The notes under the pieces: model-generated
Told to the model about the DNA's origin: nothing
Seen by the model: only the letters and a program-made list of their open reading frames with translations
Database searches by the model: none
Source of the DNA: Candidatus Iainarchaeum sp.
GTDB taxonomy: Archaea; Iainarchaeota; Iainarchaeia; Iainarchaeales; 0-14-0-20-34-12
Assembly (NCBI GenBank): GCA_030649345.1
Contig: JAUSKK010000038.1
Coordinates: forward strand, 15,192-79,191
Length of the DNA: 64,000 bases
Direction: 5' to 3'
Shown here: piece by piece, positions 35,763-60,257 of the stretch
Layout of the letters: every line of letters begins with the position of its first letter
Position numbering within the stretch: position 1 is the stretch's first letter
Made by a program: the position numbers and the translations under genes

Positions 35763-36323
35763 TTATTTGAAAATGCAATCCTGCCATTTTTGGCCTTCTG
35801 ATTTCAGCCATTCTTCATACAATTGCCTGTAATTTTTTGTACTGCTTTCCGACCAAGCTAAATTTAGCAATTCGGCTGTTTTTTGGATGTTTTTTTCAGT
35901 TCCTTCGATTTCCAATACTTGAATAAATGGCAAAGTATCTAAATCCAACAAACAACCATTGAGTTTCCATGTCTCAAATTTGATTTCGTACTTCCAGTAT
36001 TTTTGAAAGCCTAATTCTGGCAAAATTTTTTCCAGTTTGTGTACGTGTTTTTCGTTTAATTCAAATTCGATTTCTTGTTCTTGTTTAAATTCTTGATTTC
36101 CTTGAATTTTTTTCTTGTATCCAATAATAAATTTTTTTCCATGTTTTCGAATTCTCAATAGTTTTTTTTCATTTCTTAGTTTTTGATCTATTGTATCATA
36201 CAATTGTGTGTATTCAAATCCTTTTTCCAAAAGTTTTCCTTTGAGTTTTTTTAGTTTTTTCCGAATTGAATTAAAGTCGTTTACAATGAATTTGATTTCG
36301 GTTTCAATTTCAGAAGAATGCAT
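35763..36323 (-). CDS. CYTH-domain protein (triphosphate tunnel metalloenzyme)
   Basis: 186 aa. N-terminal ExExKF-type motif (ETEIKFIV) and alternating acidic residues typical of CYTH. Confidence 0.6.
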   Translation of the reverse strand: MHSSEIETEIKFIVNDFNSIRKKLKKLKGKLLEKGFEYTQLYDTIDQKLRNEKKLLRIRKHGKKFIIGYKKKIQGNQEFKQEQEIEFELNEKHVHKLEKILPELGFQKYWKYEIKFETWKLNGCLLDLDTLPFIQVLEIEGTEKNIQKTAELLNLAWSESSTKNYRQLYEEWLKSEGQKWQDCIFK

Positions 36324-36375
36324 TTTGGATTTTTGTATAAAACCATTTATTAATATATTGAATCCAGTTAAGCAT

Positions 36376-36801
36376 ATGGATTTGCGTGTTTTGGTTTTTG
36401 GTACATTTGATGGTTTGCATGCTGGTCATTTGGTATTTTTAATGCAAGCCAAGAAATTGGGAAACAAACTAATTGTGGTTTTGGCGCGGGATTTAACTGT
36501 GGTTAAATTAAAAAAAATGAAGCCTTTGCGTTCAGAAAAAGTGCGTGCTTTGTTTTTGAAAAACTTGCCTTTTGTGGACCAAGTTGTTTTAGGCAAAGAT
36601 TTTTTTAAAGACAAACTTAAAATTGTTAAAGAAATTAATCCTTCCATAATTGCTTTAGGGTATGATCAAAACGTAAATATGTCTGACCTGAAAAAAGAAT
36701 TGAATTTGCGCAGTATGTTTCCTAAACTGGTCCGGTTGAAACCGTTTAAGAACAAAATTTTTAAAACCAGAAAACTCAGAAAAATTTTATTTCAAAATTA
36801 G
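36376..36801 (+). CDS. Cytidylyltransferase-fold nucleotidyltransferase (RibL FAD synthetase / PPAT-like). Start at ATG 36376.
   Basis: VLVFGTFDGLHAGHLVFLMQAKKLG matches the (T/H)xGH nucleotidyltransferase signature. The upstream part of the ORF-track frame overlaps the divergent CYTH gene. Confidence 0.65.
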   Translation: MDLRVLVFGTFDGLHAGHLVFLMQAKKLGNKLIVVLARDLTVVKLKKMKPLRSEKVRALFLKNLPFVDQVVLGKDFFKDKLKIVKEINPSIIALGYDQNVNMSDLKKELNLRSMFPKLVRLKPFKNKIFKTRKLRKILFQN

Positions 36802-36803
36802 TT

Positions 36804-37223
36804 TTATTTTTTGCGTTTTCTCATTTCTTTGGGTTTGTGTTTTGCGTGTGTTTGTTGTAAGTCAATTACAAATGCATGTTGTAAAGCTTCTCGTCCTAAA
36901 AGTACGGGGTATCTAAACTTGCTTCGGTCACTGACTGTCATTTCTACTGCTTCTTTTTTGCCTTTGATTTCCAGCCAGCCTTGGACTACAATTCGTTTAA
37001 GTCTTTTGTAAGCGCCCTCACTTTTTTTGACATGAATTACTTTTACAATTGGCCCCAATCCTGCTTTGGCGGCAATTTCCATATCTACAGTTGTTCGCGA
37101 GCTTCCAGTATCTACTAAAGCATAGGTTTTAATGGTTTTAATTTGTCCAGTGATTTTTACGGGTTCAATTAATCCAATCACTGGCTTGTTTAAAATTTGT
37201 TTAGACTGTGTTTTCTTGGACAT
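36804..37223 (-). CDS. Retropepsin-like aspartic protease (RimK-associated protease type)
   Basis: 139 aa. Catalytic-type motif ALVDTGSSRTTV (D-T-G-S). Divergent from the RimK-type genes. Confidence 0.55.
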   Translation of the reverse strand: MSKKTQSKQILNKPVIGLIEPVKITGQIKTIKTYALVDTGSSRTTVDMEIAAKAGLGPIVKVIHVKKSEGAYKRLKRIVVQGWLEIKGKKEAVEMTVSDRSKFRYPVLLGREALQHAFVIDLQQTHAKHKPKEMRKRKK

Positions 37224-37313
37224 ATCCTAGTTTTTAAGCTATCAAACTGTTTTTAAACTAGTTATTGGAAATTAGAAGTATACTTATTTGGGTAATTTTT
37301 TGAGGTTTTATTT

Positions 37314-38174
37314 TTGAAAGTTTTAATTTTAATGACTGAAAAAGACTTCCATTTCAAAGCATTCAAGCAAGCTTTTCATGAACAAGGATTCAAAGTAGGT
37401 TATGCCAATATTAAACGTGTCAGTTTGTTTTCGAAAACTGGAAAGACAGAAATTCGGCATCCAGTCATTCATTTTGATTCCTACGATGCCGTGTATTTAA
37501 CTCCGGCTTTGCAGTTAAAACAATTTATTGAACCTTTGCTTTTAGAACTGCAGGATTTAGGTATTTATGCACAATTTAATCCAAATTCTTTTTACATTAA
37601 TGACAATGAAGCTTTGCAGGCTGTATTATTAAATTCGTTTAATGTTAAATTGGGAAAAACTATTTTGGTAGGCCAGCCAACCAAAATTATTCCAGCCACC
37701 CGTCATATGTCGTATCCTGTTTTGTTGAAATTGTTTAAGAATCAAAAAAAGAATTTTAGTTTATTGGTTGAATCTCAGCGTTCCCTGCAGTCCTTAAGCA
37801 AAAGTTTAGATCCTGATTTGGATGCTGTTTTTGTAAAAGAATTTATTGAAGGTGACATTGATCATTGTTTAGTAATTGGCGAAAAAGTATACGCCATTCG
37901 CCGAAAATGGGACGGCGAGCAAGTGGTTCATTTAAACAAAGGACAAATGACCAAACTTTCCAAAATTGATTCCGATACAGCCATTCAAGCAGCCCAAATT
38001 TGCGGATGCGATATTGCTACTGTAAAATTATGCAAAGGGTATGTGATTAAAGTAGACTCGCACGTGGATATTCAGGCATTTAATAAAAAAATTGGATTAA
38101 ATTTTTACGCTGAAGTTGCTAAATTGTATTTTGAAAAAATTAAAAATCAAAAACCCAGAGGGAAAAAAGAATGA
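37314..38174 (+). CDS. RimK-like ATP-grasp paralog with degenerate catalytic motifs
   Basis: 286 aa. Aligns with the central region of the downstream RimK-like protein (EFIEGDIDHCLVIGEKVYAIRRKWDG vs DVRCYVIGEKVIAVARQGKASDW). It lacks the Gly-rich ATP loop and the R..GG / EVN..PG catalytic motifs. Confidence 0.5.
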   Translation: MKVLILMTEKDFHFKAFKQAFHEQGFKVGYANIKRVSLFSKTGKTEIRHPVIHFDSYDAVYLTPALQLKQFIEPLLLELQDLGIYAQFNPNSFYINDNEALQAVLLNSFNVKLGKTILVGQPTKIIPATRHMSYPVLLKLFKNQKKNFSLLVESQRSLQSLSKSLDPDLDAVFVKEFIEGDIDHCLVIGEKVYAIRRKWDGEQVVHLNKGQMTKLSKIDSDTAIQAAQICGCDIATVKLCKGYVIKVDSHVDIQAFNKKIGLNFYAEVAKLYFEKIKNQKPRGKKE

Positions 38175-39109
38175 ATTCTGCGGATATTTTGAAAAAGCCT
38201 GTGAAAAAAACCAAGCTATTGATTATTGGTTCTCGGAGATACAAAAAATCTACTGTAAAGTCTTTGATTGAAGAAGGGAAAAAAGTATTTGATGCAGTGT
38301 TGTTTGTTCCAGTTCATAAAATTAAATTAATTATTGAAAAAAATGAAGTCAAACTTTTTTATAAAGAAAAAAATTTACTGGAATTTGCTGCCTGCTATCC
38401 TCGATTGAGTTCCAAAGATTATTATTCTGCTTTGCCGGTGCTGAAAGTCTTGGAAAATTCTAAAGTATATTGCCCAGTGAATATGCAAAACTTCATTGTT
38501 TCCAATCACAAATATTTTACCATTCGCGAACTGGCTAAAGCCAATATTCCGGTAGTGGAAAGTTCTTTGTTTATTTCTCCAGACTCCGTGAAAGAAGCTG
38601 TAGATGTTTTAGGTTATCCTGTGGTCATTAAATTGATCAGCGGATTTGCCGGAAAAGGAGTTATGTTAATTAAAGATCAAAAACAACTGGAATCTATTTT
38701 GGATACTGTTCATTTGTTTGAAGATTATGTGTCTGCCCAAAAATTTATTGCAGACAAACAAGGCGATGTTCGTTGTTATGTGATTGGAGAAAAAGTAATT
38801 GCTGTTGCACGGCAAGGAAAAGCTTCGGATTGGAGAGCTAATGTCAGCAGAGGCGGAACTGCGCATATCATTGAACCTTCGCTGGAATTAACTGAAATGG
38901 TTTTAACGGCAGCCAAGCTTTTTGCATTCGATATTTGTTCTGTAGACGTTATTGAAGATCCGTCTTCGCCAACCCATTATTCTGTTTTGGAAGTCAATTT
39001 TATGCCTGGCCCATTTACTTTGTTTTTAGGAAATATTATTCCCAAAGAAGTGGTTCAGTTTATGTATTCAAAAACCAGTGCTGGGAAACAAAAACTAAAA
39101 CAGACATAA
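38171..39109 (+). CDS. RimK-type ATP-grasp alpha-L-glutamate ligase family protein
   Basis: 312 aa. GYPVVIKLISGFAGKGVMLIK, DVRCYVIG, WRANVSRGG and SVLEVNFMPG, all canonical RimK/ATP-grasp motifs. Overlaps the upstream paralog by 4 nt. Confidence 0.75.
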   Translation: MNSADILKKPVKKTKLLIIGSRRYKKSTVKSLIEEGKKVFDAVLFVPVHKIKLIIEKNEVKLFYKEKNLLEFAACYPRLSSKDYYSALPVLKVLENSKVYCPVNMQNFIVSNHKYFTIRELAKANIPVVESSLFISPDSVKEAVDVLGYPVVIKLISGFAGKGVMLIKDQKQLESILDTVHLFEDYVSAQKFIADKQGDVRCYVIGEKVIAVARQGKASDWRANVSRGGTAHIIEPSLELTEMVLTAAKLFAFDICSVDVIEDPSSPTHYSVLEVNFMPGPFTLFLGNIIPKEVVQFMYSKTSAGKQKLKQT

Positions 39110-39220: not shown

Positions 39221-39919
39221 ATGAATAAATCTTTTTTAACCGTTGGCTTATTGTTGGTCATAGCTTTGTTGGTATTTGGTTGCACGAATTCAACTACTTC
39301 AACTACTGGTTCTACTGGAACTGGTGTAAGCAATCCTTTGACTGCGTTTGCTCAAACATTTAGTAATCAAGCACCGGCTGGTTTTTCAATTACGTATAAT
39401 ATGAATTTAACTGGAACTCAAACAAGCAATTCTGTGTATGTTAGTCAAAATAAATTCAGAACAGACAGTACCTTTAATGGTGTTCAAACTCGAGTCATTG
39501 TCACGGATGCTATTGCTGCTGTATGCAATCAAGAAAATAGTGTATGGCAATGTGTTGAAACTCCTGCTACTCCAGAAGAAAAACTGCAAGTCTATAATTC
39601 AACTTCTTTAAATCAAGCACAATTGGATGAATTGAATAAATTCCAAATTACGGAAGCTCCTTCTAGAACTGTTTTAGGAATTGCTGCAAAATGTTTCAAT
39701 ATGTCTAGGACAGACGACAATGATACACCGGAAACAACCGATGACGAAACTGTTACAGGTTTAACGTGTTATCATCCGAATGCATTTGTAACCTTGTATT
39801 CTGAATTGAATACTTCACAAGGCAATTTAGTTCAGGAAGCAACTGCTGTAAGCTTAACTGCTCCAGCAGATTCAGAATTTGCTTTGCCAGCTGCATTAAC
39901 CAGCCAGCCAACGGAATAG
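39221..39919 (+). CDS. Secreted Thr/Ser-rich lipoprotein-like protein
   Basis: 232 aa. Signal peptide with a lipobox-like LVFGC. The C-terminal part is paralogous to the 41493 ORF (AAKCF…LTCYHP vs QAKCY…EFCFHP). Confidence 0.5.
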   Translation: MNKSFLTVGLLLVIALLVFGCTNSTTSTTGSTGTGVSNPLTAFAQTFSNQAPAGFSITYNMNLTGTQTSNSVYVSQNKFRTDSTFNGVQTRVIVTDAIAAVCNQENSVWQCVETPATPEEKLQVYNSTSLNQAQLDELNKFQITEAPSRTVLGIAAKCFNMSRTDDNDTPETTDDETVTGLTCYHPNAFVTLYSELNTSQGNLVQEATAVSLTAPADSEFALPAALTSQPTE

Positions 39920-41492: not shown

Positions 41493-42269
41493 ATGAATTT
41501 TAAATCAATTCTAATCATGGCTTTTGTTGCCTTGATTATTGCAGGATGTACTCAACCGCCTGCCAATGGTGGAACTGGAGCTAATGCAGGAACTGCAGGC
41601 AATGGTGCTGGTGCAGCCGGCGGAGCTAATGGAAATGGAGTAGCTCAAGAAATTAGTCAATTGGGAAGTGCTCCAACAGATTATTGTATAACGTATACTA
41701 CTGGAACAAATACTGAAGCCTATGGTGGCGGATCATTTGATGCAGTTGTTGAATATTGTTTAAAAGGAACTGACAAAGTTACCAATATAAGCTTTGGCGG
41801 CGGAACTCCTGGAACACCCGGTGCAGCTCCTGAAATTGTAATGACAAATTATTGTTTGCAAAATGGAACTGTAGCTAAGACTTGCGGTTCAGGTTATTGT
41901 TCGGATGATTCAAGCGGTTGTAGTGGAATGGAAGAACCTTTTGCTACTGCAAACTGGAATGAATCTGACTTAATGTATTACAAGAAAACAGCAGACCGAA
42001 CTGTTGCAGGTGTTCAAGCTAAATGTTATTCTGTGAATTTGAATGAATTAGCTCAACAAGCAGGAGCCAATATTGGCGGAGAAACATTGCCTGCTGGATC
42101 GGATCGAGTGGAATTTTGTTTCCATCCGCAATACAAACAATTTTTGTATTATGCTTTTGGTCCAACAACAGTACAAGTTACTAATTATGTAACTCCTGCG
42201 CCGGCCAGCAAATTTGTTTTGCCTGCAGATACTGGTGCAGTTGATCCGTACGGAACTCAAACAGGTTAA
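41493..42269 (+). CDS. Secreted Gly/Ala/Thr-rich lipoprotein-like protein; paralog of 39221–39919
   Basis: 258 aa. Signal peptide with IIAGC. Shared Cys-containing C-terminal motifs with the 39221 ORF. Confidence 0.5.
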   Translation: MNFKSILIMAFVALIIAGCTQPPANGGTGANAGTAGNGAGAAGGANGNGVAQEISQLGSAPTDYCITYTTGTNTEAYGGGSFDAVVEYCLKGTDKVTNISFGGGTPGTPGAAPEIVMTNYCLQNGTVAKTCGSGYCSDDSSGCSGMEEPFATANWNESDLMYYKKTADRTVAGVQAKCYSVNLNELAQQAGANIGGETLPAGSDRVEFCFHPQYKQFLYYAFGPTTVQVTNYVTPAPASKFVLPADTGAVDPYGTQTG

Positions 42270-49785: not shown

Positions 49786-52700
49786 ATGTTGAATGAAAAA
49801 GCTAGAACACAATTGACTTTGGCATTGCTTTTGTTAGTTGTAACTGGCGTTTCGTATTCTGTGTATGCTCCGCCGGGTGACAATGGAAATGCTCAGGATA
49901 ATTTAAAAGATACTGATTTAATTTTTTCAACTGAAGAATTAAGTTCTTTGGAATTAAAACAGCAAGCTTTGCCTTATTTGAATTCTTTACTGAACACTGC
50001 AATTGAAGACGATCGCGCAAAATTACTGGAAGCCAGAGATGCTGTTGAAGCTAGTTTGAATTCAAATTACTGGAAACGTTCCGGTGTTTTAGTTGTAGAC
50101 AATCAAGTTTTTGAATTAAGTCAAACTGCAGCCAATCGAATTAAGACTTTATATAATCGTGAAAGTTCTGATTTGAATTCTGAACAATTATTGCTGGCAA
50201 TATCGCGCATAGTTCAAGCAGATCAGCAAGCAGCTGAATATACTTTGTTTTCTTTGCAGGAAATTTTTCCTCAATTAACAGATGAAAATTTGATTGCAAC
50301 TATTCAGCCCATGCTTTCCAGTGCAGAAAATGCCTACGATCAAGCATTGCATCAGTTAAGTATTGGAAATTCGCCGAATGCAATTGTACACTTTCAAGAA
50401 TCTTGGGATAATAGTTATCGTGCTGTTTTGTTGACTGATGAATTTACTATTCCGGAAGTAATCATTACAGAACCTTTGGCTGGCTGGTATACTCGTTTGG
50501 CCAGTATTTTGGTTTCAGGTACTCTTTGGGATGTTCAATTGGAAACCATTCCAAGTGTTGTGGTTGCAGTGAATGATTTGAATTATGTTTTCCCGCAATC
50601 CAATGGATTGTTTTCTGGAATTATTTCTTTAACTGAAGGAAGCAATGCAATTGTAGTTTACGGAATTGACCAATATCAAAATATTGGAACTGCAGAAACT
50701 CAGGTAACTTTGGATACTATAGCTCCAGAAATTTTTGTAGCCGGTGTAGAAAATAATTCATTTAATCCAGTTTCTGTTACTCCGGTAATTGAGTTTTCAG
50801 ATTTGCATTTAAATGAAACCAGAATTGAATTAAACAATCAAATATTTATTTCAGGAACTGAAGTCTTAGAAGAAAAAGAATATTCTTTGGTTGTTTATGC
50901 TAATGATTTGGCTGGAAATGAACAAACTCAGACTGTAAACTTTGTAATTGATCGCACAGTTCCAGAAATTGCTTTAATCAATCCCTACAATGGTCAGTTT
51001 GTGCACAATACACTAAATGTTCAAGGTACTGTGAGCGATACTTATTTAGATTACTATATATGGAAGATTGACGGAGTTGAAGTTGCACGCAATCAATCAA
51101 ATTATTCTTGGAATACTCAAAATTTTGAAGACGGAGAGCATACAGTAACTTTATTTGCAATTGATAATGCAGGAAACTCCAGTGAAACAACTGCTGCTGT
51201 TACAGTCGATAATACTTTGCCTGTGATTGAAGTTTCCGGCGTTTCAGACAATGAATTTTATAACTCTAACATTACTCCAGTAATTTTAGTTACTGAATTG
51301 AATTTAGAAATTCAGTTGTTTACTTTGAATGATTTAGAATTTGTTTCAGGCACAGAAGTCAGTGCAGAAAATGAATACGATTTGAATGTAACTGTAATTG
51401 ATAAAGCAGGAAATCGTGCTGACCAAATAGTTTCATTTACGATTGACAAGACTGCTCCATTTGCTCAAATTGTAAATCCTTTGGAAAATTCCTTTGTGCA
51501 TGAAATTGTTTCAATTCAAACTTTTGCAAGTGATTTGTATTTGGATACTCAAACTTTATTTTTGGATGGAACAGAAGTTTCTTCGAACAATTCTTTTGAA
51601 TGGAATACTTTAGATTATTCTGACGGCGAACATAGTATTGATTGGGTTGTAATAGATCAAGCAGGGAATTCTACAACAAGCAGTGTTTTGGTTACTGTAG
51701 ACAATACACTTCCTGTTGTTTTGGTTTCAGGAATTCAAGAAAATGTTTTTTATAATTCAGATCGTGTTCCCTTGGTTGAAGTTCAAGATGTAAATCCAGA
51801 TCAATTGAATGTATTTTTGAATACTCAGCCTTTTGAATTAAGTAATTCCATTTCTTCAGATAACGAATATTCTTTTACTGCAATTGCTGTGGATCGTGCT
51901 GGAAATATTGGGCAGACTACTGTAAACTTTGTTTTGGATAAAACTGTTCCAGTAGTGGAAATTGTTTCTCCTGTAGAAAATTCTTTTTTGCGCCAAACTG
52001 TTGGAATCGAAGGACTTACAGAAGACAAGTATTTGAGTACAGTTGAATTATTGGTGGATGGAACTCTAGTTTCAAATAATTCTTTTTTTGAATGGAATAC
52101 TTTGAACTATTCAGAAGGCTTGCATTCCATTGAATTAATTGCTTTAGATTTAGCTGGCAATCAATCTAGTCAAACAATTCAAGTGACTGTAGATAATGTT
52201 TTGCCGGAATTGTTGGTTCAAAATTTAACTGAAAATGGTTTGTATTTGAATTCTGATTTTACTCCCAAATTTGAATTAACTGAAACTAACCCTAGTGTAA
52301 CCAGTTCTTTGTTGAATGATTTAGAATACAATTTGGAAACTGTAAGTGTAGATGGAGATTATGTTTTGGAAATTACTCACACAGACTTAGCTGGAAACTC
52401 CAATTCTTTGACTCGTACATTTGTAATGGATCAAACTTATCCAGTAACTTCAATTGATTCTCCAACTTCTGGTTCGTTTGTTCGCGGTATTGTTTTAGTT
52501 CAAGCTCAAGCCAGTGACTTGCATTTGAGCCTAACTCAACTATTGATTGACAATGTTTTGGTTTCTTCTGAAAATGAATTCGAATGGAATACTTTAAATT
52601 ACGCTGAGGGTGCTCATAAAGTTGAATGGATTGCTTTAGATTTAGCTGGAAATCAAACCAACAGTGTTTCGTATATTGTAGTAGATAATACTGTTCCAGT

Positions 52701-55700
52701 GATTGCTATTGTTGGAGTAACTGAAGGAACTTTTTATAATTCGAATCAAACTCCATTGGTTGTAGTTCATGAAACCAATCCTAAATTAACTCAAGCATTT
52801 TTGAATAACGAGCTCTTTGAATTAGATTCAACTATTGTTGAAGAAGGCGAATATACTTTAGAAGTTCAAACAGAAGACTTAGCTGGAAATACTGCTGTTC
52901 AATCTGTTTCGTTTGTAATTGACAAAACTGCGCCTGTAACTTCCATTGATTCTCCAAGTTCTGGTTCGTTTGTTTCAGGCAATGTTTCAATTACTGCCAG
53001 TGCCAGTGACTTGTATTCTTTAACTCATACTTTGTCTATAGATGGCCAAGTTTTGACTGAAAATAATTTTATGACTTGGAATACTTTGAATTATTCTGAT
53101 GGCTTTCATGCAATTGAATGGCATGTGCAAGATTTAGCAGGAAATGAAACCAATTTGACCTATGCTGTTACTGTTGACAACACAGTTCCAGTAATTGAAT
53201 TTTTGAATTTAGAAGAAGGAACTTATTACAATCAGTTTTTGGTTCCAGAAGTTAAAATTACTGAAACTAATTTAGATTCAGTGCAGTATTTCTTAAACAA
53301 TCAATCTTATATTCCTGGAACTGTAATTCAAGAAAATAAAGAATATGTTTTAGAAGTTCAAGCTTTGGATTTAGCCGGCAATCAATCGATTGAAAGTGTT
53401 TCATTTATTGTAGATACTTTAGCTCCAGTTGTGGAATTAAGTGTTCCGAGTGCCAGTAGTTTTGTTCGCGGGGTAGTGGAAATTTCGGGTTCAGTTTCTG
53501 ATTTGTATTTGGATTCAACCAATTTATTAATTGACAATTCTTGGGTTACTTCTGATTTACCATTTAACTGGAATACTTTAGATTATTCAGATGGAAATCA
53601 TGTAGTTACTTTTACTGGAACTGATTTGGCTGGAAACTCAACTACAGTTTCTGAAATCTTTACTGTAGATAATACTGTTCCAGTGTTTGTTTATGTTTTG
53701 CCGAATCAACCGTATACTCGCTGGGATGTATTGGTTGATTTTGTTTTAACTGAAATCAATAAAGGTGTTACTGAAGCTTTTTTGAATAATGAATCTTTTG
53801 ATTGGCGTTCAGTAATTTCAGCTGAAGGAGATTACAATTTAGTTTTACGTCATACAGATAAAGCTGGAAATATTGCAGAAGTTTTGCGTACATTTACAAT
53901 TGATAAAACCAAGCCTTGGGCTGAAATTTTAAGTCCAGAAAATAATTCGTTTGTTAAAGGAATTGTTCGCGTTTCTGCAGATGCGAATGACTTGCATGGT
54001 ATTGTGTACCGTTTGGATGTAGATCAACGTGTTTTAACTACTGGCAAATCCATTGACTGGAATACTTTTGTTGAAGGCGATGGCTTGCATGTTTTGAAAT
54101 GGTTTGTAATTGATGTCGCAGCCAATGATATTTTAGTTGAACATACTGTTACTGTAGACAATACTTTGCCTGAAATTCGTTTCACCAATATTCAAAACGG
54201 AATACACTACAATTCTTCAATTATTCCTGAAATTGAAATTGTGGAATTAAATTTGCAGAGCGTACATTATTTTTTGAACAATCAACCGTATGTTTTAGGT
54301 ACTCCAATTTCTCAAGATAATGACTATGTTTTGGAAATTCAGGTTACAGATAATGCTGGAAATTATGTTACGCGATTTATTAATTTTGTGATTGACACTA
54401 CTGCGCCTGAAACAGTGTTAACTGTTCCAAACACAAATGATTTTGTAAAAGGCATGGTTTCAGTTACTGGTGAAACTTCAGATTTGTATTTAGACACCAC
54501 TACTTTGTATATTGACAGTTTGCCAGTTGCGTATAGTTTTCCGTTTGAATGGAATACTGTAAATTATTCAGACGGAACACATACTGTAAGTTATACGGCT
54601 GTAGATTTGGCTGGCAATTCAACTACTGTAAGTACAACAGTTAATGTGGACAATACTTTGCCGGCTGTAACCTATGTTACTCCAATTGTAAATTCGTATG
54701 TTCGCCAAACAGTTGAAATTAATGCAACAATTGTTGAAACAAATTTGGAATTATTGGAATTATTAATTGACACTGAATTGATTAGTAATTCTTTGCCGTT
54801 TGAATTAAATACTTTAAATTATTCAGATGGAGAACATCAATTGTCTGTAACTTTAACAGACCAAGCTGGCAATTATTATAGAACGGATTGGACTGTATTT
54901 GTAGACAATACTGTTCCTGAATCGACTGTTTCTGAATTAATCGAGAATCCTACTTTGGTTGAACCTTTTTATTCTTTAACTGGAACTATTTTAGACTCAA
55001 GTAGTATTGAATATGTTCTAGTAAATGATCAAATGGTTTCTGTATTGGATGGAGATTTTTCATTTGATTTTAATGTAATCGAAGGTCGAAATACAATTAC
55101 TGTAACTGCAGTTGATTTAGCTGGCAATCAAGTTGTTTTCTTGAAAGAAAGATTGGTAGACAAAGATTTGTTGCCTGATTTTTATGAATTATCTGTCTTG
55201 CAGTCTGATCCGTTGAATTCAGATTCTGATTTTGGAACAACTGAAGCTGATGAATCAAATAACGAAATTTTGGATGATGCTGAAGATTTAGACCAAGATG
55301 GTTTGCCTACATTTGCAGAATATTTTTATGGCTCTAATCCATTTTCAGATAATTCGGACGCAGATTCTTTGGATGATTTCTTTGAGTTAACTATGTCAGG
55401 CACTGATCCAGGAATTGCTGACTCAGATGAAGATGGCGTCTTAGATTCTGATGAAGACTTTGATGGAGATAGTTTAACGAATGCACAAGAAGAACAACTG
55501 CATGCCAATCCATACTTATTGGATACTGATTCAGATGGCTTAGATGATTCTGTTGAATCTAGTTTAGGCACAAATCCAATTGAAGTGGATTCAGATCATG
55601 ATGGTTTATTGGATGAAAGTGAAATTTATTTGGAAAGCAATCCTTTGGTGTCAGATTCAGATAATGATGGTGTCTTAGATTCGTTGGAATATTATTCACA

Positions 55701-58464
55701 GACTTTTTCAGACTTGAATGGAATTTTGCAAGTTACTATTGAAGGTCAAGGAGACTTGCGATACACTACTCAAGTTGTAGAAACACCTGAACCACATGCA
55801 GCATTGTTGGAATTACCGGATATTGTTACAGGCTACTATGATATCTCTACGGATTCAAATTTTTTATCTGCTGTAGTGCGTTTGCATTATGCTGAAAGTG
55901 ACTTGAATGGTTTGTTGGAATCTGAAATTCGATTATTTTACTACGATGAAGACTTGAATATTCTTGTAGAAGAATCCGTGCAAGGAGTGAATGAATCTGA
56001 AAATTATGTTTGGGCTCAAACTACCCACTTTAGTTATCGTGCTGCTGGTTCCAGTAAAAATTGGAAAAGTCCAACCAGTTATCCTTGGAATCGCGATCCA
56101 ATTGTTTATTCTTCTGGAGAAACTTTGCGTTTGAAAGCCCGCGTTTATAATATTGGAATTGCTCCAGCTTCAAATGTTCCTGTGAGTTTTTATTCTGGAG
56201 ATCCAAGTTCTGGTGGTGTTTTACTTGGAACAGTTACTGTAAATAATATTCCTTCTGGTGGAAATGCTGAAGCAATTTTGACTTGGGTTGCCAGTTTGGA
56301 TGTAGATTTCTTGTATGTTGTAGTGGATGCAGGCAATGTTATTGCAGAAGAATCTGAAACCGATAATAAAGCATTCCGTCAGTTTATCACAGAATTTAAC
56401 GGCGATTCTGATGGTGATGGTTTAAGTGATTATGAAGAAATTAATGGAATGCGAACACAATTCAGTAATTTATTTATTAAGACAGATCCTTACGAAGAAG
56501 ATACTGATGGCGATGGCTTAACTGATAATGTTGAAATGAATTTGGGTGGAGGAACTAATGCAAATCAACAGTATCTTACTAAAAGTAATCCATCTAAATT
56601 GGATTCGGATAATGATGGTTTAACGGATTACGAAGAACTTGCTGGCCGGCAATTACGAATTACAAACAATCACTCAGATGCAGTTGCTTTATTGTCTGAT
56701 TTGGAATTTGGAAATAGTTTAAGTGATAATGTGGACACTGGCACAGTTTATTCTGATGCATACATGGTTGACACCGATGCAGATGGGTTAACAGATTATC
56801 GCGAATTTGAATGGGGTTCAAACCCCCGCTGGGTTGACTCAGATAGTGATGGACTAAAAGATGGTGTTGACGATGACCCTTCAATGTATGATGTTACTCC
56901 TCCAAGCGTGCAAATTGTTTCAGTTTATCAAGATGAATGGTTTGGATACAAAATTAAATATGTTGTGACTGCTACAGATTCATCTGGAATAATTGCTCAT
57001 TGGATAATTCATGATGGCATACAAGTTGATTTTGCAACTTATGCTAATCGAAAAAATCCTGTGACTATTTCAGGTACCTTGGATGTCAGCTGGTTAAGTG
57101 AAAGTTTTACTGGCACTGTGGCTAACGTAAAAGTGGAGGATTATTCCGGTAACCAATTGATTAAAGACTTGTATTCTCAAGATGGTGTTGTCACTTCAGC
57201 CGCTGTTGCTGCTGTGAAAGAAATTAATCGATTGTATTCTCAAGTGGATCCTTTTAGTGGGGGAATACAATCTGGAATTGCAATTAGTTTAATCCATCAA
57301 GGAGAAGATATTGTAGGCATAGTTAAAAATCCAGGCAGTATTTTGGATGGTATTCGTGGTTTAGGCACTGCAGTAGATGAGCAAGGTATTGGTGTGGTTT
57401 CTACTTTATATAATTCATTTAAGCAACGCATTGATGAATCGCATAATTCTTTGAATCCATTTAAATCCAGTGACTGGAGATATTCTTCTTATCAAGGTGG
57501 TTTTTACACTGGTTATGTGGGTGGCTTAATTATTACTTCCGTGGTAGGCGCTGGTGTTGTATCCAAAGGATTGAGTGTCATTAAAGCTGGAAGTTTAGTT
57601 TCTAAAATTTCAAAAATTAGCATTGTAAAGAGCGCGCTGAGTATTGTAAAACAAACTCCACGAATGAAACTGTTATTGGGCGCAGCCGGAACTGTAGCTG
57701 CTACCTATTGGTTGAAAGAACAGTTCCCTGATATTGATGCATTGCAAACTTTGTCCGATTACCAAATAGGTTTTGCCACCATGGCATTAACTGCTGAAGC
57801 AGGTCCTGCCTTGGGTCGCATTGCAGGAGTTACAGCAGCTCAACAAAAACGCTTAGTTGTATTTCTTTCCCGAAATTCTAAATTTACTGTAGAAAATCGT
57901 GTGGCTTTCTTAAAGCCAGCATCAATTGACAACGGCGTAGCTAAAATATTCAGTGACTTGTCTGATGACTTACAGGATAATATTTTTATAGCATCTCACG
58001 GACAAGGCATTCCTTCATTGGAACGTAGTGTAATTGTTTCTCGCACAAATCGATTGAAAAATGTCCCCGGAGTTGACGATGTTGTAAGGAATCTTAATAA
58101 ACGTAATTGGCATGGTCATTATTTTGAATTAGATGCCGCGGATACTTTGCGAACGCGGGGTCATAATTTAATTGAATTATCTAAAAAATACCCTTTTGGT
58201 GACGGTGAACTGGATGTGTATTTCCAGCACTTAAATGGAAAGAAAATTGTTGCTGAAATAAAATCTATTCCGGCTGATAAATGGCTTACAAATAAAGGAA
58301 ACTTAGATCCGCGTATTGATCGACAATTGGATAGATATGCGCGACTTGTACAAACTGGCGATGCTCAAGAAGCATGGGTTATTTCAGAAAACACTATTTC
58401 TCCTGCTGCCAGAACGCTTATTGAAAACAAAGGAATTATTATAAAATATATTGGAGAGATTTAA
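49786..58464 (+). CDS. Giant (2892 aa) secreted surface protein. Tandem Ig-like repeat units and Ca-binding DxDxDG (thrombospondin-type-3-like) repeats precede a C-terminal PD-(D/E)xK nuclease-like domain. Candidate polymorphic toxin / contact-dependent effector.
   Basis: N-terminal signal/TM. About nine ~163-aa repeats starting VTVDNT[LV]PV and containing WNTL[ND]YSDGxH. Two blocks of D-S-D-x-D-G-[LV]-x-D repeats. C-terminal ~190 aa carry HGHYFELDAAD…GDGELDVYFQ…GKKIVAEIKS (D…ExK). A hydrophobic stretch precedes the C-terminal domain. Confidence 0.7.
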   Translation: MLNEKARTQLTLALLLLVVTGVSYSVYAPPGDNGNAQDNLKDTDLIFSTEELSSLELKQQALPYLNSLLNTAIEDDRAKLLEARDAVEASLNSNYWKRSGVLVVDNQVFELSQTAANRIKTLYNRESSDLNSEQLLLAISRIVQADQQAAEYTLFSLQEIFPQLTDENLIATIQPMLSSAENAYDQALHQLSIGNSPNAIVHFQESWDNSYRAVLLTDEFTIPEVIITEPLAGWYTRLASILVSGTLWDVQLETIPSVVVAVNDLNYVFPQSNGLFSGIISLTEGSNAIVVYGIDQYQNIGTAETQVTLDTIAPEIFVAGVENNSFNPVSVTPVIEFSDLHLNETRIELNNQIFISGTEVLEEKEYSLVVYANDLAGNEQTQTVNFVIDRTVPEIALINPYNGQFVHNTLNVQGTVSDTYLDYYIWKIDGVEVARNQSNYSWNTQNFEDGEHTVTLFAIDNAGNSSETTAAVTVDNTLPVIEVSGVSDNEFYNSNITPVILVTELNLEIQLFTLNDLEFVSGTEVSAENEYDLNVTVIDKAGNRADQIVSFTIDKTAPFAQIVNPLENSFVHEIVSIQTFASDLYLDTQTLFLDGTEVSSNNSFEWNTLDYSDGEHSIDWVVIDQAGNSTTSSVLVTVDNTLPVVLVSGIQENVFYNSDRVPLVEVQDVNPDQLNVFLNTQPFELSNSISSDNEYSFTAIAVDRAGNIGQTTVNFVLDKTVPVVEIVSPVENSFLRQTVGIEGLTEDKYLSTVELLVDGTLVSNNSFFEWNTLNYSEGLHSIELIALDLAGNQSSQTIQVTVDNVLPELLVQNLTENGLYLNSDFTPKFELTETNPSVTSSLLNDLEYNLETVSVDGDYVLEITHTDLAGNSNSLTRTFVMDQTYPVTSIDSPTSGSFVRGIVLVQAQASDLHLSLTQLLIDNVLVSSENEFEWNTLNYAEGAHKVEWIALDLAGNQTNSVSYIVVDNTVPVIAIVGVTEGTFYNSNQTPLVVVHETNPKLTQAFLNNELFELDSTIVEEGEYTLEVQTEDLAGNTAVQSVSFVIDKTAPVTSIDSPSSGSFVSGNVSITASASDLYSLTHTLSIDGQVLTENNFMTWNTLNYSDGFHAIEWHVQDLAGNETNLTYAVTVDNTVPVIEFLNLEEGTYYNQFLVPEVKITETNLDSVQYFLNNQSYIPGTVIQENKEYVLEVQALDLAGNQSIESVSFIVDTLAPVVELSVPSASSFVRGVVEISGSVSDLYLDSTNLLIDNSWVTSDLPFNWNTLDYSDGNHVVTFTGTDLAGNSTTVSEIFTVDNTVPVFVYVLPNQPYTRWDVLVDFVLTEINKGVTEAFLNNESFDWRSVISAEGDYNLVLRHTDKAGNIAEVLRTFTIDKTKPWAEILSPENNSFVKGIVRVSADANDLHGIVYRLDVDQRVLTTGKSIDWNTFVEGDGLHVLKWFVIDVAANDILVEHTVTVDNTLPEIRFTNIQNGIHYNSSIIPEIEIVELNLQSVHYFLNNQPYVLGTPISQDNDYVLEIQVTDNAGNYVTRFINFVIDTTAPETVLTVPNTNDFVKGMVSVTGETSDLYLDTTTLYIDSLPVAYSFPFEWNTVNYSDGTHTVSYTAVDLAGNSTTVSTTVNVDNTLPAVTYVTPIVNSYVRQTVEINATIVETNLELLELLIDTELISNSLPFELNTLNYSDGEHQLSVTLTDQAGNYYRTDWTVFVDNTVPESTVSELIENPTLVEPFYSLTGTILDSSSIEYVLVNDQMVSVLDGDFSFDFNVIEGRNTITVTAVDLAGNQVVFLKERLVDKDLLPDFYELSVLQSDPLNSDSDFGTTEADESNNEILDDAEDLDQDGLPTFAEYFYGSNPFSDNSDADSLDDFFELTMSGTDPGIADSDEDGVLDSDEDFDGDSLTNAQEEQLHANPYLLDTDSDGLDDSVESSLGTNPIEVDSDHDGLLDESEIYLESNPLVSDSDNDGVLDSLEYYSQTFSDLNGILQVTIEGQGDLRYTTQVVETPEPHAALLELPDIVTGYYDISTDSNFLSAVVRLHYAESDLNGLLESEIRLFYYDEDLNILVEESVQGVNESENYVWAQTTHFSYRAAGSSKNWKSPTSYPWNRDPIVYSSGETLRLKARVYNIGIAPASNVPVSFYSGDPSSGGVLLGTVTVNNIPSGGNAEAILTWVASLDVDFLYVVVDAGNVIAEESETDNKAFRQFITEFNGDSDGDGLSDYEEINGMRTQFSNLFIKTDPYEEDTDGDGLTDNVEMNLGGGTNANQQYLTKSNPSKLDSDNDGLTDYEELAGRQLRITNNHSDAVALLSDLEFGNSLSDNVDTGTVYSDAYMVDTDADGLTDYREFEWGSNPRWVDSDSDGLKDGVDDDPSMYDVTPPSVQIVSVYQDEWFGYKIKYVVTATDSSGIIAHWIIHDGIQVDFATYANRKNPVTISGTLDVSWLSESFTGTVANVKVEDYSGNQLIKDLYSQDGVVTSAAVAAVKEINRLYSQVDPFSGGIQSGIAISLIHQGEDIVGIVKNPGSILDGIRGLGTAVDEQGIGVVSTLYNSFKQRIDESHNSLNPFKSSDWRYSSYQGGFYTGYVGGLIITSVVGAGVVSKGLSVIKAGSLVSKISKISIVKSALSIVKQTPRMKLLLGAAGTVAATYWLKEQFPDIDALQTLSDYQIGFATMALTAEAGPALGRIAGVTAAQQKRLVVFLSRNSKFTVENRVAFLKPASIDNGVAKIFSDLSDDLQDNIFIASHGQGIPSLERSVIVSRTNRLKNVPGVDDVVRNLNKRNWHGHYFELDAADTLRTRGHNLIELSKKYPFGDGELDVYFQHLNGKKIVAEIKSIPADKWLTNKGNLDPRIDRQLDRYARLVQTGDAQEAWVISENTISPAARTLIENKGIIIKYIGEI
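50700..54950 (+). repeat. Nucleotide-level tandem repeats (about 490-bp period, about 9 copies) encoding the Ig-like repeat units of the giant gene
   Basis: The periodic recurrence of gtagacaatac[tg]… / tggaatact… segments mirrors the protein repeats. Confidence 0.55.
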
Positions 58465-59772: not shown

Positions 59773-59994
59773 TTGATTGTTATGAACTTTAAGGTAATTT
59801 TAGAGAAAGGTGAAGATGGTTTTTTTGTAGTGACTGTTCCTGCTTTGCCTGGTTGTATTTCTCAAGGTGAAACTGAAAAAGAAGCTTTGGATAATATTAA
59901 GGAAGCCATTGAATTGCATGTTTCTTCTTTGGCTGAAGATGGAATTCCGATTTCTCAGAAACAAGTTGTGAAGGAAGTTGCTGTAAGGTTATAG
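59773..59994 (+). CDS. hicB: HicB-family antitoxin
   Basis: 73 aa. FKVILEKGEDGFFVVTVPALPGCISQGETEKEALDNIKEAIELH is the UPF0150/HicB RNase-H-like fold signature. Confidence 0.6.
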   Translation: MIVMNFKVILEKGEDGFFVVTVPALPGCISQGETEKEALDNIKEAIELHVSSLAEDGIPISQKQVVKEVAVRL

Positions 59995-60032
59995 AATGTC
60001 TAAGCTTCCGATTATTTCCGCAAACGAAACGC

Positions 60033-60257
60033 TTGTTTCGTTGCGCATTAAAACGTGTTCGTTTTAATTGCGGAAAAGATTTATTGAAAATTTTATTAAA
60101 AAAAGGTTATTATATTCGAAACCAGAAAGGAAGTCATGTTCATTTGCGTCATTCTTTTTTGTTGCCTGTGACTGTTCCCAATCATAAAGTAATTGCACTA
60201 GGTACACTTAAAGCTATAATGAAAACTACTGGTTTAACTGAAAAAGATTTTGAGTAA
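60033..60257 (+). CDS. hicA: HicA-family mRNA-interferase toxin (start uncertain: TTG 60033 or TTG 60084)
   Basis: LLKILLKKGYYIRNQKGSHVHLRH…VTVPNHKVIALGTLKAIMKTTGL matches the HicA/YcfA signature (KGSH…H…VP.H). Confidence 0.55.
   Translation: MFRCALKRVRFNCGKDLLKILLKKGYYIRNQKGSHVHLRHSFLLPVTVPNHKVIALGTLKAIMKTTGLTEKDFE

Follow-up and report, generated by a model that had tools for sequence, protein, structure and literature searches.

We analysed a 64,000-nt stretch of DNA (the window) from a metagenome-assembled genome of Candidatus Iainarchaeota (Diapherotrites), a phylum of the kingdom Nanobdellati, or DPANN group; the searches for accessory and substrate genes reported below covered that stretch. 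The first of its two ligases has an identical counterpart among the proteins of a 'Candidatus Diapherotrites archaeon' MAG. The locus of interest holds three genes. One, on the minus strand, encodes a RimB-like retropepsin-type protease of 139 amino acids (aa) with a match to PF05618 (36804-37223). Divergent from it is a ligase operon on the plus strand, which begins with a degenerate RimK paralog, here called pseudo-RimK (37314-38174, 286 aa, TTG start), and continues with an active RimK-family ATP-grasp ligase (38171-39109, 312 aa; TIGR00768 and PF08443). All three open reading frames (ORFs) lie where an initial sequence-only reading of this DNA had placed them, and the layout that it described could be read directly in the DNA: an AT-rich intergenic region of 90 bp (37224-37313) separates the protease gene from the operon, and the stop and start codons of the two ligase genes overlap in the four nucleotides ATGA (38171-38174, plus strand). 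The intergenic region presumably holds a bidirectional promoter that serves both transcription units. The ATGA overlap indicates translational coupling of pseudo-RimK with RimK, and in related loci the two genes likewise overlap by 4 nt or lie at most 4 nt apart. The TTG start of pseudo-RimK is backed by its orthologs and by the first beta-strand of the modelled structure.

We placed the active ligase using the cutoffs of curated hidden Markov models (HMMs) together with a ranking of structures. It scored 148.3 bits against TIGR00768, the RimK family (cutoff 143.4), and 100.3 bits against PF08443 (cutoff 21; E=1.3e-28). Its second-best NCBIfam match, LysX_arch/ArgX (TIGR02144), reached 115 bits against a cutoff of 275.6; the third-best, MptN (NF040720), reached 107.3 bits against a cutoff of 350. 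Scores were likewise far lower than required for the S6--L-glutamate ligase (NF007764, 104.8 bits, cutoff 331) and for CofF (TIGR04443, 48.0 bits, cutoff 300), so the ligase does not fall in the CofF/MptN cofactor clade that the sequence-only reading had raised as a possible placement. The best sequence matches in the PDB were Pseudomonas and E. coli RimK (E=2e-27). An AlphaFold2 (AF2) model of the protein had a predicted local distance difference test (pLDDT) score of 88.7, with template-modelling (TM) scores of 0.81-0.88 to RimK and 0.73-0.85 to ArgX/LysX; the nearest solved structures were bacterial RimK.

All catalytic positions are kept in this protein. We defined the catalytic signature as two ATP-site lysines, the Gly-rich loop, the catalytic arginine, the R.N..GG loop and the D/E/N magnesium ligands. 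The active ligase reads KGGGQKDRRRNSGGDEN at these positions, which is the canonical RimK signature, and the motifs noticed in the sequence beforehand (GYPVVIK...GKGV, DVRCYVIG, WRANVSRGG and EVNFMPG) are all present. Lysine K114, which we take to be E. coli K100, is invariant among 120 active homologs. The protein is a predicted alpha-L-amino-acid ligase, and the amino acid that it adds is probably glutamate.

Pseudo-RimK is a distant relative of its neighbour (25 per cent identity, E=2e-12) and matches PF08443 weakly (E=3e-10). Its degeneracy was scored against Pseudomonas RimK and again in an alignment of 120 active homologs with 70 members of the pseudo-RimK family. Both alignments bear out the earlier claim that the first ligase has lost the Gly-rich loop and the R..GG and E.N residues. 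KNQKKNFS stands in place of the loop SGFAGKGV; histidine takes the place of the DVRC arginine and glutamate that of the invariant lysine of the NHK motif (K114 in the active paralog), and the WRANVSRGG substrate loop is missing. The magnesium-ligand aspartate (VD) has become lysine and the E.N pair is lost, which leaves none of the three magnesium-ligand positions. The sequence-only reading had asked whether a catalytic lysine or arginine might be retained. One ATP-site lysine (K139, in LLKL) and one arginine (R197) do survive; the second ATP-site lysine and the catalytic arginine are gone, together with the Gly loop, R.N..GG and the magnesium ligands. Overall, the signature of the window copy is KNKFKEDHRVHNGQKDH, versus KGGGQKDRRRNSGGDEN for RimK.

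We then ran an exhaustive profile search and read seventeen signature positions in its 150 best matches. In canonical RimKs these read K-G-G-G-Q-E-D-R-R-R-N-x-G-G-D-E-N almost without exception, and the top ~45 matches, which make up the pseudo-RimK family, each lack most of the 17. Most family members keep the aspartate and an acidic residue at the glutamate position (i.e. two acidic magnesium-ligand positions). The window copy does not, and its lineage is therefore among the more degenerate.

The fold has been retained. The AF2 model of pseudo-RimK shows the complete three-domain RimK fold (pLDDT 93.7, predicted TM score 0.89), and Foldseek aligned it to the RimK structures 7qyr, 5zk6 and 4iwx with TM scores of 0.81-0.83 at 17-18 per cent identity. 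The family is small and discrete. An indexed search with pseudo-RimK returned seventy clusters at 249-442 bits, the next score being 56 bits, and an exhaustive HMM search of 1.84 billion proteins returned 41 representatives at E<=1e-30. Members share as little as 30-45 per cent identity, with the gene intact, and have invariant motifs specific to the family (F-x-E-P-L-L, S-N-E and C-G-x-D-I-A). Across thirteen locus pairs, most of them with saturated dS, the ratio of non-synonymous to synonymous substitution rates (dN/dS) of pseudo-RimK was 0.05-0.3; in the least saturated pair it was 0.106, compared with 0.034 for RimK and 0.062 for the protease. Pseudo-RimK evolves about 1-2.5 times as fast as its active partner. 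Because the family is discrete, keeps its fold, has invariant motifs of its own and shows a dN/dS of 0.05-0.3, we regard pseudo-RimK as a functional, non-catalytic protein. With its fold kept, its catalytic residues lost and its sequence under purifying selection, it is a maintained pseudoenzyme.

Two further groups of RimK-like proteins came up in these searches. A set of shorter degenerate proteins of 265-280 aa (P0215-P0232, P0234, P0238, P0240 and P0242) has E, Q or R even at the ATP-site lysine that pseudo-RimK retains, and these may be pseudo-ligases of other lineages. Another set (P0245, P0277, P0329 and P0310) contains RimB-RimK fusions in both domain orders as well as a tandem RimK-RimK protein. 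Two fused proteins were considered as Rosetta-stone support for the pair and rejected: P0310 is the RimK-RimK protein, in which both halves look catalytically intact, and P0324 joins RimK to a different ATP-grasp domain. Neither is a fusion of a pseudo-ligase with an active one.

The protease scored 44.8 bits against PF05618 (RimB-like, formerly 'Zn_protease'; cutoff 27). In agreement with this match, the catalytic-type sequence ALVDTGSS noticed in the sequence-only reading contains the D-T-G-S active-site motif, and there is a flap/dimer motif, LLGRE, as well. Residues D38, G40 and G110-R111 are invariant across twelve orthologs. Against the RimB equivalog NF052261 the score was 28.0 bits, where at least 200 is required; the protein is a distant member of PF05618 and, by the NCBI criterion, no RimB ortholog. 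Its best NCBIfam match, a weak one, was RloA3 (30.6 bits), and its closest PDB matches were 9g58 and 9g59, which are RloA-type 'zinc protease domain' structures. No signal peptide was found in the protease. Its computed isoelectric point (pI) is 10.3, and such a basic protein is compatible with an acidic substrate.

To see how the three genes are arranged elsewhere, we gathered loci through the pseudo-ligase, through the active ligase and later through a zinc-ribbon protein described below, which gave thirty-nine distinct pseudo-RimK genes. The named genera among them are Candidatus Iainarchaeum and Candidatus Forterrea, both of the phylum Candidatus Iainarchaeota. Where the sequence extends far enough (36 loci), the next gene downstream, on the same strand, encodes an active RimK in 35 cases, and the two genes usually overlap by 4 nt. 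Upstream, 38/39 distinct loci have a divergent RimB-like gene at a distance of at most 400 bp; in the sole exception (L007) it is 3.6 kb away. The loci have two kinds of surroundings. In clade A, which includes the window, the order is TyrRS, cytidylyltransferase-like, (GNAT), RimB, pseudo-RimK and RimK, PurA, IMPDH. In clade B, the module is flanked by CysRS and, at its opposite end, by HAD hydrolases. As the module alone is common to both, the linkage exceeds local synteny, and the prospect that the protease would prove unlinked in other genomes, also raised beforehand, did not materialize. The clade-B pseudo-ligases (e.g. L006 4087-5004 and L008 4087-5004) have a C-terminal extension of ~25 aa that resembles an amphipathic helix, an example being YDFLGLRKIFGKTILGWLFK; the window copy lacks it.

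Relatives of the window locus often carry more genes beside the module. A GNAT acetyltransferase gene follows the protease gene, often overlapping its 3' end, in 33/37 loci. The window is without that gene; there, the stop of the cytidylyltransferase-like gene (36801) and that of the protease gene (36804) are 2 nt apart. A MATCAP-family gene is present in 19/29 loci and an M29 aminopeptidase gene in 7/25. In clade B, the MATCAP-family gene comes directly after RimK and is often followed by the M29 gene (L006 5993-8196; L008 6107-8363; also L018, L020, L021, L024 and L026). The MATCAP proteins of the relatives match PF08014 with E=1e-44 to 6e-51, and the NCBIfam 'QEGLA' family matches the same protein. 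Clade A has a case too (L013), with the MATCAP-family gene at 5 kb from RimK, and six loci (L021, L036, L039, L043, L047 and L083) have two tandem MATCAP paralogs. Enzymes of the MATCAP/TMCP type are metallocarboxypeptidases that trim the acidic tails of tubulin and shorten poly-Glu chains (PMC10499314). Partners such as these are what would be expected of an enzyme whose products are acidic extensions at C-termini. The suggestion of a tailing-and-trimming module, made from the sequence of the window, thus gains support from the MATCAP and M29 genes directly after RimK and the GNAT gene after the protease in its relatives.

A small protein with an acidic tail, like the LysW carrier, had been proposed as something to look for nearby, and the result was mixed. 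LysW is the partner of the RimK-family ligases LysX and ArgX. In clade B, a CxxC...CxxC zinc-ribbon protein of 65-75 aa is encoded 1-2 kb beyond the GNAT gene; it was found in all eight clade-B loci with enough upstream sequence (8/8, unbiased set). The tails of these proteins are strongly acidic, with ends such as EDYDSD, DEDYS and DEDYDD, and the pI of the whole protein is ~4. Examples, both on the minus strand, are L006 2005-2226 and L008 1457-1660, and the gene was also found in L018-L021, L023 and L025. In clade A, the homolog in L013 (2817-3014, minus strand) ends in DEFYSE and lies immediately upstream of the MATCAP gene. Three of the zinc-ribbon proteins were tested, and the best NCBIfam match of each was NF041070, the LysW/ArgW carrier, at E=5e-7 to 9e-6, matches that fall short of the cutoff. 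The LysW-like gene is absent in 11/12 clade-A loci, and the carrier that was looked for, present beside the module in clade B, was not found in the window. A screen of the window for proteins with acidic C-terminal tails or E-tails found none. The LysW-like zinc-ribbon protein is our best substrate candidate and is a lead rather than a finding; we dropped it as an established substrate, as its gene, with a neighbour encoding a Yip1-domain membrane protein, also occurs away from the module.

Taken together, we think it moderately probable that the three genes are the minimal form of a module, conserved in Candidatus Iainarchaeota, for the synthesis and trimming of acidic tails at C-termini or of poly-alpha-glutamate chains. 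The active RimK-family ligase would use ATP to add amino acids one by one, L-glutamate being the likeliest, to a terminal carboxylate. Pseudo-RimK would be a non-catalytic subunit in a mixed oligomer with its active paralog, where it could tune activity or recruit the substrate. We propose a mixed oligomer because RimK and LysX are themselves oligomers (RimK is a tetramer). The genetic evidence for such a partnership is the ATGA overlap together with the adjacency of the two genes in 35 of 36 loci. The strongly basic retropepsin would cut the acidic product as Pseudomonas RimB does, and in the fuller versions of the module the MATCAP-type metallocarboxypeptidase, the M29 aminopeptidase and the GNAT acetyltransferase would also take part. 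A more elaborate form of this proposal, which we put forward only tentatively, is a reversible C-terminal 'tail code'. Here a hetero-oligomer of RimK and pseudo-RimK would be the writer and would lengthen the acidic tail of the LysW-like zinc-ribbon protein, with the pseudo-ligase recruiting the substrate, and the RimB-type endopeptidase and the MATCAP-type carboxypeptidase would act as erasers. Such a system would be an archaeal counterpart, and possibly a relative through MATCAP, of the tubulin tyrosination/glutamylation cycle.

Several observations weigh against the proposed tailing-and-trimming module. A search of the window with tblastn for GNAT, MATCAP and M29 genes found none, and ~3 kb of flanking sequence beyond the window edges, on short Logan contigs, held no module genes. 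Nor was a LysW-like gene detected in the window, either by a screen of small ORFs for CxxC...CxxC or with an HMM built from the LysW-like proteins. Where it does occur, the LysW-like gene always travels with the gene for the Yip1-domain membrane protein, and two loci (L082 and L084) have it without the module nearby, so its nearness to the module in clade B could be plain synteny. Most if not all of the loci come from one phylum, so part of the linkage is shared ancestry. The saturation of dS noted above weakens the estimates of selection. Finally, the ATP-site lysine kept in pseudo-RimK, along with the two acidic magnesium-ligand positions kept in most of its family, may mean that it still binds a nucleotide or that some activity persists, perhaps in changed form.

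In one competing account no protein is modified: the module would produce free poly-alpha-L-glutamate, or short peptides that are acidic, and recycle them, for instance as a reserve of glutamate or charge or as an osmolyte. RimB, a retropepsin, cuts poly-Glu and also stimulates RimK, and both in vitro and in vivo the pair yields poly-alpha-Glu in free form (PMC11957791). Moreover, the set found in relatives, with an endopeptidase (RimB), a carboxypeptidase (MATCAP) and an aminopeptidase (M29), would cut a peptide internally as well as at its two termini; for a tail at the C-terminus of a protein, an aminopeptidase would be of little use. No substrate gene was found in the window. On the other hand, the universal retention of a dedicated pseudo-subunit would go unexplained, characterised enzymes of the MATCAP family act on protein tails (PMC10499314), and a LysW-like protein with an acidic tail is encoded beside the module in clade B and adjoins MATCAP in L013. 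We judge this account possible, if rather unlikely; it is compatible with protein tailing, since RimK does both.

It is improbable, in our view, that the locus is a carrier system of the LysW/LysX type, in which a ligase couples the amino group of a single amino acid to the C-terminal carboxyl group of a LysW-like carrier, as part of a biosynthetic pathway, and a peptidase releases the product. The rank of LysX_arch as second-best NCBIfam match (115 bits), the structural closeness of ArgX/LysX (TM 0.73-0.85) and the LysW-like zinc-ribbon proteins encoded close to the module, in clade B as well as in L013, would all fit such a system. However, the LysX score is far under its cutoff of 275.6, and the listed neighbourhoods lack genes of the LysZ, LysY, LysJ and LysK types (amino-acid kinase, semialdehyde dehydrogenase, aminotransferase and M20). 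The zinc-ribbon proteins have EDYDSD, DEFYEE or DEFYSE at their C-termini, unlike the EDWGE tail of LysW, and the window has no LysW-like gene. The pathway also has no role for a RimB-type endopeptidase.

Less probable still is a glutamyl ligase similar to CofF or MptN, acting on F420 or methanopterin-type cofactors, with the protease unrelated to it. An archaeal host and the third rank of MptN among the NCBIfam matches (107 bits) would agree with this, but the MptN and CofF scores are far under their cutoffs of 350 and 300. Furthermore, the protease and the other peptidases are tightly linked to the ligase, the neighbourhoods are without cofactor-biosynthesis genes, and synthesis of cofactors of the F420 or methanopterin type is not known from DPANN archaea of this kind. 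The idea that the first ATP-grasp gene is a decaying, functionless duplicate in an accidental position, for which its lost catalytic residues and its ~1-2.5x faster evolution might speak, is effectively refuted by a gene intact across members that are 30-45 per cent identical and share invariant motifs of their own, a fold modelled with high confidence (pLDDT 93.7), a dN/dS well under 1 and a conserved translational coupling.

Some other features of the window were recorded. The cytidylyltransferase-like gene beside the protease is listed as a 197-aa ORF with a GTG start (36208-36801, plus strand), which overlaps a CYTH gene (35763-36323, minus strand) by 116 nt. Its orthologs are 141-152 aa long, so the true start is probably the ATG at 36376 (MDLRVLVFGTFDGLHAGH). 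Two plus-strand genes that flank purA (39221-39919 and 41493-42269) encode distant paralogs, with 28 per cent identity over ~100 aa (E=2e-4). Both products have a signal peptide ending in a lipobox-like G-C-T and a linker rich in threonine and glycine, and neither has a Pfam match. Further along the plus strand are a giant ORF of 2892 aa (49786-58464) and a pair consisting of a HicB-like antitoxin and a HicA toxin (59773-60257), whose Pfam matches were obtained on the corresponding Logan contig (L091).

Bacterial RimB-RimK is the closest known system. In the rimABK operon of Pseudomonas, RimK, which adds poly-Glu tails to the ribosomal protein S6, is coupled to the retropepsin-like RimB. Both there and in the archaeal locus, the genes of a RimK-family ligase and of a cytosolic PF05618 retropepsin-like protease are linked, and the two systems likely share a logic in which an acidic tail is added and then trimmed. 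They differ in several ways. The Pseudomonas system has a bacterial host and S6 (RpsF) as its target, whereas the host here is an archaeon, and we know of no bS6/RpsF homolog in archaea. The protease of Pseudomonas is co-transcribed with the ligase and that of the archaeal locus is divergent. The archaeal locus has no RimA/EAL gene, and its active RimK comes after a paralog that is catalytically dead yet obligatory. Its relatives add MATCAP, M29 and GNAT, and the window proteins are far from the equivalog cutoffs for RimB and the S6 ligase.

Three other systems share parts of this arrangement. Pseudomonas RloABC, which consists of a secreted retropepsin, an inactive transglutaminase with seven transmembrane (7TM) segments and an ATP-grasp protein, likewise links a PF05618 retropepsin to a RimK-like ATP-grasp enzyme. 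The window protease, however, lacks a signal peptide, a RloB-like transglutaminase/7TM gene is missing, and the ATP-grasp partner is a canonical RimK together with pseudo-RimK. The LysW/LysX and ArgW/ArgX systems of Thermus and archaea resemble the related loci only, in pairing a RimK-family ligase with a small zinc-ribbon protein that has an acidic tail. Those systems have LysZ, LysY, LysJ and LysK, and a different tail motif; the loci described here have a pseudo-ligase, a retropepsin and MATCAP instead, with no carrier gene in the window. In the eukaryotic tubulin cycle (TTL/TTLL, MATCAP/TMCP, VASH and CCP), an ATP-grasp ligase acting on an acidic C-terminus is likewise combined with a MATCAP peptidase (PF08014), as it is in relatives of the window locus. 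Here, though, the ligase belongs to the RimK clade and not to TTL, there is no tubulin, and MATCAP is absent from the window. The relation to the tubulin cycle is one of analogy and of shared membership of a peptidase family, with no demonstrated common system.

The published surveys of RimK/RimB-type systems that we consulted (including PMC11957791) cover bacteria only, and none of the papers covered by our literature search joins RimK with DPANN or Diapherotrites. Tailing by RimK/RimB has so far been studied experimentally only in bacteria, on S6. The archaeal loci offer a clean natural case in which an ATP-grasp pseudoenzyme is paired with a paralog that is active, and a simple prokaryotic setting in which a MATCAP-type peptidase and an ATP-grasp ligase may be seen as an opposing pair. 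The components of the module are all small and soluble, and are open to direct expression and assay. That the RimK/RimB pair is conserved in genome-reduced DPANN archaea, always with a dead ligase paralog and often with a MATCAP-family carboxypeptidase, points to a target in archaea whose C-terminus is tailed with amino acids, or to an archaeal poly-glutamate metabolism.

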